Source: a phage
Direction: 5' to 3' (one strand)
Length of the DNA: 64,000 nucleotides
Sequence record: PX104380.1
The translations under genes were made by a program, and so were the position numbers. Of this stretch, positions 16,353 to 59,474 are shown piece after piece (the first letter of the stretch is position 1; every line of letters starts with the position of its first letter). The notes beneath the pieces were generated by a model, which searched no databases, was not told the DNA's origin, and saw only the letters and a program-made list of their open reading frames with translations.

Positions 16353-17213
16353 TTATACTGCCATTTTTCCTTTAATTGGCGGGTGAGATACATAGTCGTT
16401 AAGAACAAAATTATGCGGCTTTGCGAATTGACTCAACCAAAATACCTGCGATTCTGTATCCCATTCATCAAATTCATCTGGAAATTTTAATTGTAATTCG
16501 CATAAATCCATAGGTTCACGACGCAAAATTTCTTTACATTGTTCTACGTGATTCATATAGATATGAGTATTACCACCAGAAAATATCAAATCTCCCGGAA
16601 TAAGATTACACATCTTAGCTACAATATGAACTAACGTAGCATATGATGCAATATTAAATGGAAGACCGAGGAAAACATCTACCGAACGTTGATACCACTG
16701 AAGGTCAAGGTATCCATTACGAACATTAAATTGATAGAACATATGACAAGGTGGTAATGCCATCTGCTTGAGTTCAGCTGGATTCCATGCTGAAACAATT
16801 TGACGCCTATCATTTGGCAGTTTTTTAATACGATCAATAACTTCTATAATTTGGTCTACACCACCAAAATCACGCCACTGTTTTCCATAAATTGGACCAA
16901 GTTCACCGCTATGGTATCCTAAATCTTTTGCTTGATTTTCGTAATTTTCATCCCAAACTGTTTTGCCTTGGATTAACGAATCATGTTGAATTAATCGCAA
17001 ATCATTGACATTTGTGCTTCCCGATAAAAACCATATTAACTCAGCAATGCAAGCTTTCCAGGCGAGCTTTTTAGTTGTTACTGCAGGAAAACCTTTAGTT
17101 AAATCCCAGCGTAATTTAGTACCGAACAAAGCAATTGTTCCTGTGCCTGTTCGGTCATCGGTTTCATAACCATTTTCAAAAATGTCTTTAATTAAATCTT
17201 GGTATTGTTTCAT
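16353..17213 (-). CDS. td: thymidylate synthase, 286 aa, uninterrupted
   Basis: Contiguous 286-aa ORF with ThyA features (catalytic Cys region PPCHMFYQF). Confidence 0.95.
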   Translation of the reverse strand: MKQYQDLIKDIFENGYETDDRTGTGTIALFGTKLRWDLTKGFPAVTTKKLAWKACIAELIWFLSGSTNVNDLRLIQHDSLIQGKTVWDENYENQAKDLGYHSGELGPIYGKQWRDFGGVDQIIEVIDRIKKLPNDRRQIVSAWNPAELKQMALPPCHMFYQFNVRNGYLDLQWYQRSVDVFLGLPFNIASYATLVHIVAKMCNLIPGDLIFSGGNTHIYMNHVEQCKEILRREPMDLCELQLKFPDEFDEWDTESQVFWLSQFAKPHNFVLNDYVSHPPIKGKMAV

Positions 17214-17228
17214 TTAACACCTATATAA

Positions 17229-17576
17229 TCAATACGGTTTAGCATCAAATTTTCTCTCAATTTCAGGCGTGAAATATAATTCTTTACCGCGTTTGGAAAA
17301 GCGACCAATAATATGATAATTATTCTCATCAAACGTGATATTACCAATATCCATAGCTTTCAACCAAATATCGATATTTCTATCCAGCTTTATGTCAAAA
17401 TTCCAATACGGAGAACTATTACCGAAAATACTGCAAGCGGATTCAGTGAAACAACTGCTATAAATCTTATCTTTAGGAACTACTAATTGATAGACACCTT
17501 TAATAAACTGAGGACCCTGCCACTTTGGCTGTTTCTCGTCTTTTTCTAATAGAATAGGGTAATAATTAAAATTCAT
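17229..17576 (-). CDS. hypothetical protein, 115 aa, between frd and td
   Basis: ORF track; ATG verified; no recognised motif. Confidence 0.5.
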   Translation of the reverse strand: MNFNYYPILLEKDEKQPKWQGPQFIKGVYQLVVPKDKIYSSCFTESACSIFGNSSPYWNFDIKLDRNIDIWLKAMDIGNITFDENNYHIIGRFSKRGKELYFTPEIERKFDAKPY

Positions 17577-17595
17577 ATTTCCGCCACGCGTTATT

Positions 17596-18422
<827 letters not shown>

Positions 18423-18433
18423 ATTATCTCCTA

Positions 18434-18766
18434 TTAAAAAGGATCAGGAACATATCCGCTAGCTTTAATCATTTTAATTAACGTTAACATTCCTTTGTTA
18501 ACTGCTCGTGAGATTTCATCAAAAACTTCATCACTAAAAAGTTCTAACACGCCCTTCTGAACTTTTAATTTACAGCCAACAATTTCTTCATCGCCTATAG
18601 TAAATTCATTACCACCAATTCCACCGAAAAACTTAATTACACCAGTTAACTGTCTTCCACGAGAATATGGGTCGTGTGATAAAGTAATATGAGTCACCCC
18701 GAGTACAGTTTTAAATTGGCAGCGAATATTTACTTGTGAAATTCCAGTTACATGAATGTCAGACAT
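18434..18766 (-). CDS. hypothetical protein, 110 aa
   Basis: ORF track; ATG verified. Confidence 0.5.
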   Translation of the reverse strand: MSDIHVTGISQVNIRCQFKTVLGVTHITLSHDPYSRGRQLTGVIKFFGGIGGNEFTIGDEEIVGCKLKVQKGVLELFSDEVFDEISRAVNKGMLTLIKMIKASGYVPDPF

Positions 18767-18776
18767 AATATTTTCC

Positions 18777-19019
18777 TCAAATAGACTTTTTCACAATTTT
18801 CCAATCAGCTTTAAACTGATCGACGTCAGAGTGATAAATCCAAAATCCTGCGCTTTCACCGTCTTCATAAAGCGGACACCCATCACATTCATCTTCCCAT
18901 CCCATACCACGTAAAAGATGTTCAGCTTTTTCAACAAGTTCAGAATCTTTACCGATGATATTAAAATACCATTTACCTCTAACTTCTGAATCTTTGATGC
19001 TTTGGCGTTGTAATCTCAT
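18777..19019 (-). CDS. hypothetical protein, 80 aa
   Basis: ATG at 19019 preceded by AGGAGAATAAA; track extension runs through the promoter. Confidence 0.5.
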   Translation of the reverse strand: MRLQRQSIKDSEVRGKWYFNIIGKDSELVEKAEHLLRGMGWEDECDGCPLYEDGESAGFWIYHSDVDQFKADWKIVKKSI

Positions 19020-56827: not shown

Positions 56828-56835
56828 TATTTATA
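56828..56835 (-). promoter_or_regulatory. late promoter (TATAAATA) for soc
   Basis: Minus-sense TATAAATA ~30 nt upstream of soc ATG, overlapping the 3' end of the HNH ORF. Confidence 0.65.
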
Positions 56836-57667
56836 ATCCATTTTCAAATCTCTTTATCATGTTTATATAATTTTCGTCAGGATAACCTAGGCTAACTGCT
56901 AGTTTTCTAAAATTGACATATTTAGGTTTGTTGTTATTAATCCATAATTCTCTAAGCTCTTTTTCATAATTCCATTTAAGTTGATTTCTGCGTGCAGTTT
57001 TGCTTAAAGTTTTTCCTTTAGCTTTTAAAGCTTTTTCAGATGACTGTTTTAATTTTTGAATATTTAAAACTTCTTCTATAGATAAATTATTTTCCTTTGA
57101 ATATCTTATGCAAAAATCTTTTACTGCGGCTATTAGGCAATTTTTGTGAGTACCTAAAATTTCTGGGTTATTTTCTTCAACTAAAATTCCCCAATATCTT
57201 CGGTAGCGAGGCATATCTCTTGAAATCCAGTCATTATACCAAAAATCAAAGTTGGAATACATGAAAGATTTTCTTTTACGAAGAGTATCTTGGTTTATCC
57301 ATTGCTCACGTTTATCAGCCCATAACTTAATAGTAAAGTCTTTTTCTGAGTCAGAAAGCTTCTTAAATTGCGAGCTATTTACTGAGGTCATTCTCTGGAA
57401 TGCATTCAGCAATCCAAATCTTCCAGTTGAACATAAGAGATAGTGAACATATATGTGTTGATATATTGGGAGATATACTCTATTCCAAGGATGTATTTTA
57501 AAATCACTATACTCAGGAAATGCGCATTTAGGAAGTATATGATGGGCTTCTGTTTTAGATTTGATGTGAGTGTTTAACTTATATTTATCTATAATTTTTA
57601 AGTACTCATCTAAAAGTTCCCATTGCGGGAACTTTTCTTTAAGAGCAGATTTGAAATTAATATCCAT
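56831..57667 (-). CDS. HNH homing-endonuclease-like protein, ~278 aa, between soc and gene 56
   Basis: HNH motif EAHHILPKCAFPEYSDFKIHPWNRVYLPIYQHIYVHYLL, similar to the mobE ORF; track start 57682 is TTG, ATG at 57667. Confidence 0.6.
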   Translation of the reverse strand: MDINFKSALKEKFPQWELLDEYLKIIDKYKLNTHIKSKTEAHHILPKCAFPEYSDFKIHPWNRVYLPIYQHIYVHYLLCSTGRFGLLNAFQRMTSVNSSQFKKLSDSEKDFTIKLWADKREQWINQDTLRKRKSFMYSNFDFWYNDWISRDMPRYRRYWGILVEENNPEILGTHKNCLIAAVKDFCIRYSKENNLSIEEVLNIQKLKQSSEKALKAKGKTLSKTARRNQLKWNYEKELRELWINNNKPKYVNFRKLAVSLGYPDENYINMIKRFENGL

Positions 57668-58175
57668 TATCTTGACGTTCAAAATTATGCTTGTTCTTCA
57701 GATAATAAAGTTTAAAGATTTCTTCAGCAGTAAGGCCGAGACCTTGGAACATGTTCAGAACGAAATGAAGAATATCAATCATTTCGAATTTAATTTCCAA
57801 CTGGTCTTGTGGAGACAAATCAGTAATCAGAGTTTCACGACGTTCACCATGCTGCGACTTCCAAGGCTTCCATACAGCAGATGCATCTTTTTCACCATTG
57901 CTCATACCACCAAGAGAAGTCAGAAGTTCACGGAATTCATCATCAATGTAATCTTTCTGATTACGCAGCCAATCGACAACTTCACCTGCAGTAGCCAAAT
58001 CATCAGGATGACGGTTATATTCAGGTTTATCTTTAGCTAAACGAACCTGCAGAGATTTCTGCATATCAAGCATAACTTGCAGTGGGTCTTTTTCATCACC
58101 GAGAATATCCCAGTATTCATTTTGAGCTTTATCAGCACCAGCGATCAGATGACTACATTCGTTGAAATGTGGCAT
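57657..58175 (-). CDS. 56: dCTP pyrophosphatase (dCTPase/dUTPase) gp56, 172 aa
   Basis: 172 aa MazG-like; position upstream of soc. Confidence 0.85.
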   Translation of the reverse strand: MPHFNECSHLIAGADKAQNEYWDILGDEKDPLQVMLDMQKSLQVRLAKDKPEYNRHPDDLATAGEVVDWLRNQKDYIDDEFRELLTSLGGMSNGEKDASAVWKPWKSQHGERRETLITDLSPQDQLEIKFEMIDILHFVLNMFQGLGLTAEEIFKLYYLKNKHNFERQDNGY

Positions 58176-58248
58176 GTTATTTTTCCTTTCAATTCATGGG
58201 TTAGTAGATTAATTATACAATAAATATATAAAGCAATAAGGAGGACAT

Positions 58249-58449
58249 ATGGTACAAAAATTAATGGCACTTGTTAATGCCATAAAAGGTAATAAAAAAC
58301 GTATAGCTTTTACTATTTCTGCTATGGTAGGAATTTTACTCTGGAACTTTATTTTATCACCTGTTGCAATTGCACATGGTGTTAATATTCCAGTAGTTAC
58401 TCTTGATACATTTGTAGATTTAGCATTTGCTTTAGTTGGGTTAATTTAA
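58249..58449 (+). CDS. small membrane protein, 66 aa, plus strand
   Basis: ATG at 58249 preceded by AAGGAGG; two predicted TM segments (IAFTISAMVGILLWNFIL, LVGLI). Confidence 0.45.
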   Translation: MVQKLMALVNAIKGNKKRIAFTISAMVGILLWNFILSPVAIAHGVNIPVVTLDTFVDLAFALVGLI

Positions 58450-59474
58450 ATCTTAGCATATTTAGATAACCGCATTTTAGCCATTAACCCCTGGGCAATA
58501 TTATTTTTCATATATTCCATAATTTGTTCAGGGGTTGCACCTTCCTTTCTAATCATATCATTAACATCTTTTGATTTCCAGGGAGATTTATCCCAAAACA
58601 TAACCCTTTCTCCTGCATCAACTAATTTAGTCATTCGCTTGATAGTGTCAGGATGACGAGGTTCATTATCTAAAACCCACACTCGTCTATCTTTAAATGG
58701 AACAACTTCTAGGTCTAATTGACCACCCGTAATAGCTATACCATTTTCAATGAAAAGGGAATCGATAGGTCCTTCTAGAACATATACATCGCCATCTTTA
58801 ACTCGTTCAACTCCATAGATTTTTGTTGCCTCAGGATAAGCTTTAATGGTGATATATTTTTGAGGAGCATCTTTCTTTAATGCGCGTCCTTGAAAAGACT
58901 CAGCCTTTCCGTCAGCATTATAAATTGGAATAACAAGACGAGGCTCAGAAATTTCCTTTTTGTATGTTCCCGGTGCGATGCTATTAACTAATTTAGGCCA
59001 TTCGGTTGTAAACCAAAGATATTTCCATTTATCCTTTGGAATACAACGAGCTTTTACATATTTTATAATTGGATGGTCTTCCGCCAGTTTATCTAATCTA
59101 ACACATGACGGAAGAGATTTAATTATTTTCTTCTCAGGTTGTTTAGGAAGTTCTTTAGGTTTTTCTACTGAACGACTTTTACCTTTTTCTTTTCTTATTT
59201 CAAAGATATACTCACGATATAAATCAGGTTCAAACTCCTTTAAATATATTCCGATTGGTGCATGATAGTTACAGTTATAACAATGAATATTTCCTTCATT
59301 ATTATCACCATAATACCATCCACGGGCTTTATTCTGGTCGGTTTTTGAATCTCCACAAACTGGGCATCTAAACCGTAATTTAAAAGTTGAACTATTATTT
59401 ACTTGTGTGAATTTAGGTAAATGAGCTAATGCACGGTATGCAAACTCATTATCAATCCAAGGTATTGATGACAT
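58446..59474 (-). CDS. 61: DNA primase gp61, 342 aa
   Basis: N-terminal zinc ribbon CPVCGDS...CYNC; TOPRIM region; 342 aa. Confidence 0.9.
   Translation of the reverse strand: MSSIPWIDNEFAYRALAHLPKFTQVNNSSTFKLRFRCPVCGDSKTDQNKARGWYYGDNNEGNIHCYNCNYHAPIGIYLKEFEPDLYREYIFEIRKEKGKSRSVEKPKELPKQPEKKIIKSLPSCVRLDKLAEDHPIIKYVKARCIPKDKWKYLWFTTEWPKLVNSIAPGTYKKEISEPRLVIPIYNADGKAESFQGRALKKDAPQKYITIKAYPEATKIYGVERVKDGDVYVLEGPIDSLFIENGIAITGGQLDLEVVPFKDRRVWVLDNEPRHPDTIKRMTKLVDAGERVMFWDKSPWKSKDVNDMIRKEGATPEQIMEYMKNNIAQGLMAKMRLSKYAKI

Follow-up and report, generated by a model that had tools for sequence, protein, structure and literature searches.

The window examined here, a stretch of 64,000 nucleotides of phage DNA (PX104380.1), is a segment of a Tequatrovirus (T4-like) genome, with 95–96% identity to the phages Kha5h, Ec_O157kw and PYPS2T across a 24-kb stretch. 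Between gene 56, whose counterparts in relatives are labelled dCTP pyrophosphatase, and the primase gene 61 lies a true gap of 270 bp (58176–58445). The sole long open reading frame (ORF) in this gap runs on the plus strand, and we refer to it by the name dam.1 (Table 1). A first-pass annotation, made from the sequence of the window, had described a plus-strand ORF of 66 aa that follows an AAGGAGG ribosome-binding site and is opposite in strand to all neighbouring genes, and the coordinates of the ORF bear this description out. dam.1 and gene 61 converge, and the TAA of dam.1 overlaps the stop codon of gene 61 by 4 nt (TTAA).

Table 1. Features at the gene 56–gene 61 locus of the window.
Feature	Position	Strand	Basis and remarks
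Gene 56 (dCTPase/dUTPase, 172 aa)	57657..58175	-	ORF list; label in relatives; left-hand neighbour
Putative MotA-type middle promoter of gene 56 (oriA primer promoter in T4)	58212..58236	-	Sequence; homology to T4 P(M)16.53
AATAAATA, putative late-promoter (gp55-type) variant, A at −13	58219..58226	+	Sequence; 22 nt before the ATG
Shine-Dalgarno sequence AAGGAGG	58238..58244	+	Sequence; 4 nt upstream of the dam.1 ATG
dam.1 (RB69ORF029w / RB32ORF030w / PHROG 2024), 66 aa, predicted single-pass inner-membrane protein	58249..58449	+	ORF list, PHROG, tblastn, dN/dS, AlphaFold2
Weak terminator-like hairpin (8 bp, −8.9 kcal/mol), then UAAUUUUU	58264..58283	-	Pattern scan; inside dam.1 codons 6–12
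Gene 61 (DNA primase, 342 aa)	58446..59474	-	ORF list; annotation of relatives; convergent right-hand neighbour

On the far side of gene 56, between soc and gene 56, a minus-strand ORF of 283 aa (56831..57682) occupies the slot of segF in T4 and shares 26 nt with the 3' end of gene 56. Counterparts of this ORF are called HNH or homing endonuclease in relatives (SHGT_069, PYPS2T gp140). It has no Pfam match at E ≤ 1 and is unannotated in the Kha5h RefSeq record.

The same small ORF is present in T4 itself. In the T4 record NC_000866, dam (16846–17625) and gene 61 (17935–18963) are separated by 309 bp without annotation, and this gap holds a plus-strand ORF of 66 codons at record positions 17738–17938. 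Its product is identical to that of the window ORF at 65 of 66 residues, and both the AAGGAGG and the 4-nt overlap with gene 61 recur in T4. The gene is called dam.1 in T4T (HM137666), RB69ORF029w in RB69 and RB32ORF030w in RB51, while the Kha5h record bears the note 'Dam.1; similar to RB69ORF029w' and a recent T4 record labels the product hypothetical protein, phrog 2024. In line with this label, a homology search with the 66-aa product matched phrog_2024 with E = 1.5e-31 over residues 2–66 (profile positions 1–65 of 65). Matches in 696 phage records were obtained by tblastn, and IMG/VR contributed only five further, near-identical loci. dam.1 is an already annotated hypothetical gene, ordinary and widespread in T4-like phages. 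The names RB32ORF030w, ORF029w and dam.1 occur in no phage paper of the literature searched. Taking gene identity, coding status, late class and membrane location together, we hold with high confidence that the ORF is dam.1 in all these respects.

The first-pass annotation had noted the lack of a dam-sized ORF between genes 56 and 61, and this observation is correct. The gap is too short for one, so that the 259-aa Dam cannot be encoded between the two genes. Beyond the gap, tblastn with T4 Dam returned no significant homologue in the 64-kb window (best E = 2), no D/N/S-PP-Y/F/W motif in a Dam-like context occurs among the window ORFs, and no Dam homologue was found in positions 1–150 kb of Kha5h, the closest relative. 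The window maps to Kha5h from 149.8 kb, across the record end and start, to 47.9 kb. With neither the window nor Kha5h 1–150 kb encoding a Dam, one whole genome-equivalent of the lineage is thus dam-less; the search for a dam gene elsewhere, which had been proposed as a check, thereby covers the window and the rest of the relative. The lineage of the window phage probably lacks dam altogether, like most Tequatrovirus records.

The small ORF was also taken to stand at the locus instead of dam. This idea does not survive comparison with relatives, since T4, T2 and the Shigella phage vb_GEC_SH_GT carry both genes, the ORF always abutting gene 61, and we therefore reject a replacement of dam by the ORF. 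A junction alignment of the window with both sides of T4 dam revealed that the difference is the clean presence or absence of a cassette of ~880 bp. The window tracks the gene 56 side of T4 as far as the mot box, which reads AAGCAAT in plus-strand orientation, and then continues directly with the AAGGAGG and ATG of dam.1, where T4 has an insert of about 880 bp that comprises dam and the region upstream of it. The direct 56|dam.1 junction of the window type is found in 181 phage records, many of them 100% identical, and the dam|dam.1 junction of the T4 type in 81. T4-type Dam at 90% identity or more is present in about 182 records, as against about 501 for dam.1. Judged by these junctions, dam is an accessory cassette that lies between the gene 56 promoter and dam.1 in some Tequatroviruses (T4, T2) and is absent here, which accounts for the missing dam gene. 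Such an absence is a common accessory-gene polymorphism and no mark of anything unusual in the window phage.

The interval between gene 56 and dam.1 (58176–58248) is a hotspot for variable inserts and is empty in the window. T4 has dam in this slot, and T2 has dam together with an ORF of 181 aa. In PYPS2T and IME08 the slot is occupied by a homing endonuclease, and ZX14, R3_1 and Moon carry small unknown ORFs there. dam.1 stays attached to gene 61 whatever fills this slot.

Within this 73-bp spacer, the minus strand carries the elements of the gene 56 middle promoter, namely an ATTGCTT mot box, a 13-nt spacer and TATAAT (58217..58212). The T4 counterpart, P(M)16.53, serves gene 56/69 and oriA, and its mot box and −10 element are annotated in record X01416 directly after the dam stop codon. 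The homology suggests that the element would act as a middle promoter in the window phage as well. The late-type AATAAATA sits on the plus strand in the spacer of this opposite-strand promoter, and the two promoter classes share 25 bp. A similarly compact layout, with gene 56 only tens of bases from dam.1, is found in Mosig- and Gaprivervirus.

Homologues of dam.1 with lengths of 63–69 aa, on the plus strand and convergent with the primase gene, were found in Tequatro-, Mosig-, Gapriver-, Kanagawa-, Dhaka-, Marfa-, Jiaoda-, Moon- and Gelderlandvirus. We compared 12 representative loci or genomes from these nine genera. The open frame, its length and a strong Shine-Dalgarno sequence of the GGAGG type are kept in all 12, and the stop codons of dam.1 and the primase gene overlap by 4 nt in most of them, while the protein identity to the window dam.1 drops to 20–30% among the homologues. 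Pairwise codon differences are most frequent at position 3 and least frequent at position 2 (30/12/40 at positions 1, 2 and 3 between the window and HX01), and dN/dS ranges from 0.05 to 0.41 with dS saturated. By this pattern of substitution, dam.1 is clearly a true protein-coding gene under purifying selection in at least nine T4-like genera.

In the alignment of the family, W32, N33, P38 and G44 are invariant, A40, L47, P48 and G64 are nearly so, and position 53 is always or nearly always acidic. The window protein conforms to the family core W-N-x4-P-x-A-x3-G-x2-L-P-x4-(D/E) with W32, N33, P38, A40, G44, P48 and D53, and has I47 in the Leu column, where L is found in 90% or more of the family. 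A profile search of 5.8 billion proteins recovered 117 members, all of them short and all from contigs of T4-like size, and none of these 117 carries an evidence-based function. Searching 1.84 billion representative proteins with phmmer likewise returned only phage homologues, apart from three long repeat proteins (PQQ-like, SH3-like) that we judged spurious, as they matched through low-complexity LLWNF/hydrophobic stretches.

Two members of the family differ in the layout of the locus. The Gaprivervirus TH44 carries two tandem dam.1 paralogues before the primase gene (2495–2692 and 2701–2901 of the locus), a T4/RB69-type and a Dhaka/Kanagawa-type copy with a dN of 0.91 between them. The pair points to an old duplication or to recombination, and the protein possibly functions as an oligomer. 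In Klebsiella phage JD18, the GC-rich palindrome AGGGGCTTCGGCCCCT (2193–2209 of the locus) sits precisely at the junction of the dam.1 homologue with the primase gene, whereas T4-type phages have overlapping stop codons instead. The palindrome resembles a terminator that would act in both directions on the two convergent genes.

How dam.1 might be expressed was considered unclear in the first-pass annotation, which saw no exact late-promoter motif upstream. The motif is indeed inexact, AATAAATA being one mismatch away from TATAAATA. The signal itself is nevertheless recognisable, because no natural variant of the T4 late promoter is commoner than AATAAATA, and TATAAATA stands at the gene in three genera. 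Of 50 late-promoter sites in T4, 32 are perfect and nine have an A at −13 (Geiduschek and Kassavetis, PMC2988020). Moreover, the early and middle transcripts of T4 are all opposite in polarity to the dam.1 strand (PMC2988020), so that a gene on this strand can only be late.

The motif is well kept among the relatives. NATAAATA is found 12–22 nt before the start codon in ten of the 12 dam.1 loci, and the loci of Moon- and Gelderlandvirus have TATTAAATA in its stead. The full element takes its canonical form, TATAAATA, at this position in Dhaka-, Marfa- and Kanagawavirus, and reads AATAAATA in the window and Mosigvirus, GATAAATA in T4 and T2, and CATAAATA in Gapriver- and Jiaodavirus. In most loci this is the only plus-strand ATAAATA in 4–5 kb, and the probability of a chance occurrence in the 32-nt interval is 0.3–1.2% per locus. 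The late-type motif is retained in both dam-plus and dam-less upstream contexts despite their differing flanks. A scan for sigma-70 promoters yielded eight sites, compared with 9.2 expected from shuffled sequence, and none of them lies on the plus strand upstream of dam.1. A TATAAATA-type element is thus present in the orientation of dam.1, about 10 bp ahead of the predicted start, and from this arrangement we infer gp55-dependent late transcription of dam.1 that would begin at about 58232. Transcript, ribosome-profiling or proteomic evidence for the dam.1 ORF was not found in the searchable literature, and a T4 omics paper (PMC9697503) is silent on antisense as well as unannotated genes.

The structure of the dam.1 protein was predicted with AlphaFold2 from a 31-sequence alignment, with moderate confidence (mean pLDDT 72). 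The model consists of helices at residues 2–12, 16–42 (27 residues) and 52–62, the latter two connected by a loop (43–51). Hydropathy reaches about 2.0 over residues 20–41. The first-pass annotation had predicted transmembrane (TM) segments in the plural, of which the hydrophobic character and one clear TM helix (about 19–42) stand; besides this helix there is a short hydrophobic C-terminal helix, and no further clear TM segment. The N-terminus has a net charge of +1 to +5 in 29 of the 31 members, with KGNKKR in the window protein, and the segment after G44 has a net charge of 0 to −3 among the aligned members. dam.1 is therefore predicted to be a single-pass inner-membrane protein with an N-in/C-out topology, as read from hydropathy and the positive-inside rule. 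The term 'small membrane effector', which had been offered for the product, is a fair description of what is likely a hydrophobic protein with a predicted TM helix. The conserved residues are all located in the outer half of the helix or on the predicted periplasmic side, and the invariant Trp-Asn pair within the TM helix suggests a specific helix-helix association.

No meaningful match to dam.1 was found in Pfam, in NCBIfam or in a sequence-profile search of the PDB, and Foldseek searches against BFVD and PDB returned nothing beyond members of the family. COX7B was alone among Pfam families in matching several members (five of 31, best E = 0.009), which we take as a chance match among single-pass membrane proteins. 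A likeness of 'F-V/I-L-S-P' to the signal-anchor-release domain of T4 RI was rejected, the hhalign probability being 0.2%. T4 holin T was rejected by the same method (probability 0.2%), as was Ac.

Combining these features, we propose the following tentative model. Late in infection, RNA polymerase with gp55 would initiate at the variant promoter AATAAATA and produce a transcript with a leader of about 17 nt, from which the strong AAGGAGG would drive translation of the 66-aa protein. The protein is predicted to span the inner membrane once, by a TM helix at about 19–42, and to keep its basic N-terminus (KGNKKR) on the cytoplasmic side, which would place the conserved Gly/Pro turn and the short, acidic amphipathic helix on the periplasmic side. 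The invariant W32-N33, together with P38, A40, G44, P48 and the acidic residue at 53, could then mediate a helix-helix contact at the periplasmic face, either with a second copy of the protein or with another membrane protein. Such a contact would most plausibly tune a late envelope event, for example the timing of lysis. A lysis-timing protein, ORF52, has been described in a different phage, BSPM4 (PMC11657625).

Any specific role of this kind, as a late membrane modulator of lysis timing or envelope state, is at best a doubtful assignment. The same holds for its fullest form, in which dam.1 is an overlooked player in the late envelope biology of T-even phages, a bitopic microprotein that uses its intramembrane Trp-Asn motif and its acidic periplasmic helix to bind an inner-membrane partner and thereby sets the timing of lysis or protects the late infected cell; we put this forward as a speculative reading that is unlikely to be right in full. 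Candidate partners on the phage side are holin T and the RI/RIII lysis-inhibition machinery, and on the host side a membrane sensor or a defence protein.

The hydrophobic stretch of dam.1 can also be read as part of a pre-protein. Residues 1–42 would then form a long Sec signal peptide, and signal peptidase I would free the active species, the hydrophobic peptide HGVNIPVVTLDTFVDLAFALVGLI of ~24 aa, to the periplasm or to the outer leaflet. The basic n-region, the hydrophobic core, a Pro at −5 and an A-x-A at −3/−1 are consistent with such processing, and so is the conservation around the putative site, where P38 and A40 are invariant or nearly so and position 42 is A or T in all 31 members, followed by the conserved G44. 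The C-terminal 24 residues also include several conserved positions (G44, L47, P48, the acidic position 53 and G64). However, W32-N33 lies within the hydrophobic core and is invariant across nine genera, which is atypical of a disposable h-region. The core measures about 22–24 residues, the length of a signal anchor, compared with the 7–15 residues usual for signal peptides, and many members have Thr at −1, a poor residue for cleavage. On balance we regard release of a peptide as improbable.

To the same low degree we credit a holin-, pinholin- or antiholin-like factor in the timing of lysis, which would oligomerise to leak ions or bind holin T. The late-promoter motif and the predicted membrane location agree with such a function, as do the polar residues conserved in the TM helix (N33, and also D27 in the Dhaka/Kanagawa type), and the tandem paralogues of Gaprivervirus fit a self-associating protein. 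The UniProt entry of a close homologue (OE5505) is even labelled 'Holin', but this is an unreviewed name with no evidence attached. No Pfam holin family was matched by any of the 31 members, even at E ≤ 10, and there is no similarity to T4 holin T or to the antiholin RI. The dam.1 C-terminus is hydrophobic and acidic (net 0 to −3) and is without the basic cytoplasmic tail typical of holins. Furthermore, dam.1 of Kha5h is not part of a lysis cassette, the holin gene t being about 25 kb away and the lysozyme gene about 47 kb.

The locus also has features that could act at the level of RNA. No recognisable terminator was found by pattern scan on the plus strand after dam.1 and before gene 61, so the late dam.1 transcript probably continues into gene 61 in antisense orientation. 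The terminator-like hairpin of the minus strand inside dam.1 has a U-rich run on its 3' side and is of low significance (z = −1.65; 11 of 200 shuffles fold as well). It may attenuate read-through from gene 61 to gene 56, or may be a chance structure. The hairpin occurs in Tequatrovirus only and is absent from six other genera; this distribution and its z value led us to reject it as the reason for the conservation of dam.1.

That the locus is kept for an RNA role, be it a late antisense transcript pairing with read-through early mRNA (genes 61 to 56) or a region retained for the hairpin or the gene 56 promoter with the ORF incidental, is highly improbable: the unterminated late transcript, the hairpin and the transcription of both strands of T4 at some sites at different times (PMC2988020) fit this idea, whereas the third-position substitutions, a dN/dS well below 1, nucleotide sequences diverged to saturation between genera, the retention of frame, length and a strong Shine-Dalgarno sequence in 12 of 12 loci, and a hairpin that is missing outside Tequatrovirus and barely better than shuffled sequence all stand against it. 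The antisense regulatory element considered in the first-pass annotation is accordingly not needed to explain the conservation, since the sequence evolves as a protein, and an RNA role could exist only on top of the protein.

The value of these findings lies mainly in annotation and housekeeping. The T4 RefSeq record NC_000866 is without dam.1, and omics studies that use this annotation therefore miss the gene. The notable point is that a conserved, putatively late membrane protein of T4 is still uncharacterised and missing from the RefSeq record of this phage. Should a role in lysis timing, exclusion or anti-defence prove true, a small late membrane factor would be added to the best-studied lytic phage. 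If the protein indeed binds a membrane partner as proposed, the textbook T4 lysis or exclusion system would have an unrecognised member that is absent from the reference annotation.

Comparing the window ORF with dam.1 of T4T, RB69ORF029w, RB32ORF030w and PHROG 2024 shows that all represent the same gene, with identities that range from 65 of 66 residues for T4 to about 54% for the RB69 type. The window, T4T, RB69 and RB32 copies have in common their size, their strand, the overlap with the gene 61 stop codon, a strong Shine-Dalgarno sequence and NATAAATA. No substantial difference separates the window ORF from these copies; it directly abuts the gene 56 promoter, owing to the absence of the dam cassette. 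T4 Dam itself shares with the window ORF the map position between genes 56 and 61 alone. Dam is a 259-aa product of a minus-strand early gene, which resides in a separate cassette adjoining dam.1 and has no homologue in the window.

When dam.1 is compared with T4 late genes that have gp55-dependent TATAAATA promoters, the clockwise strand and an 8-bp motif of the −10 type shortly upstream of a strong ribosome-binding site are shared features. In contrast to those genes, dam.1 is not a structural or assembly gene and lies alone inside a cluster of early and middle replication genes. Its motif is also non-canonical in Tequatro-, Mosig-, Gapriver- and Jiaodavirus.

The predicted dam.1 protein can also be compared with the small T4 envelope proteins Imm, Sp, RI, RIII, Ac and holin T, with which it shares the short length of a phage protein and a predicted action at the inner membrane or in the periplasm. 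A comparison that covered RI, holin T and Ac detected no similarity of dam.1 to any of the three, either in sequence or in profile. Moreover, Imm, Sp and Ac are encoded by early genes, whereas dam.1 has only a late-type signal.
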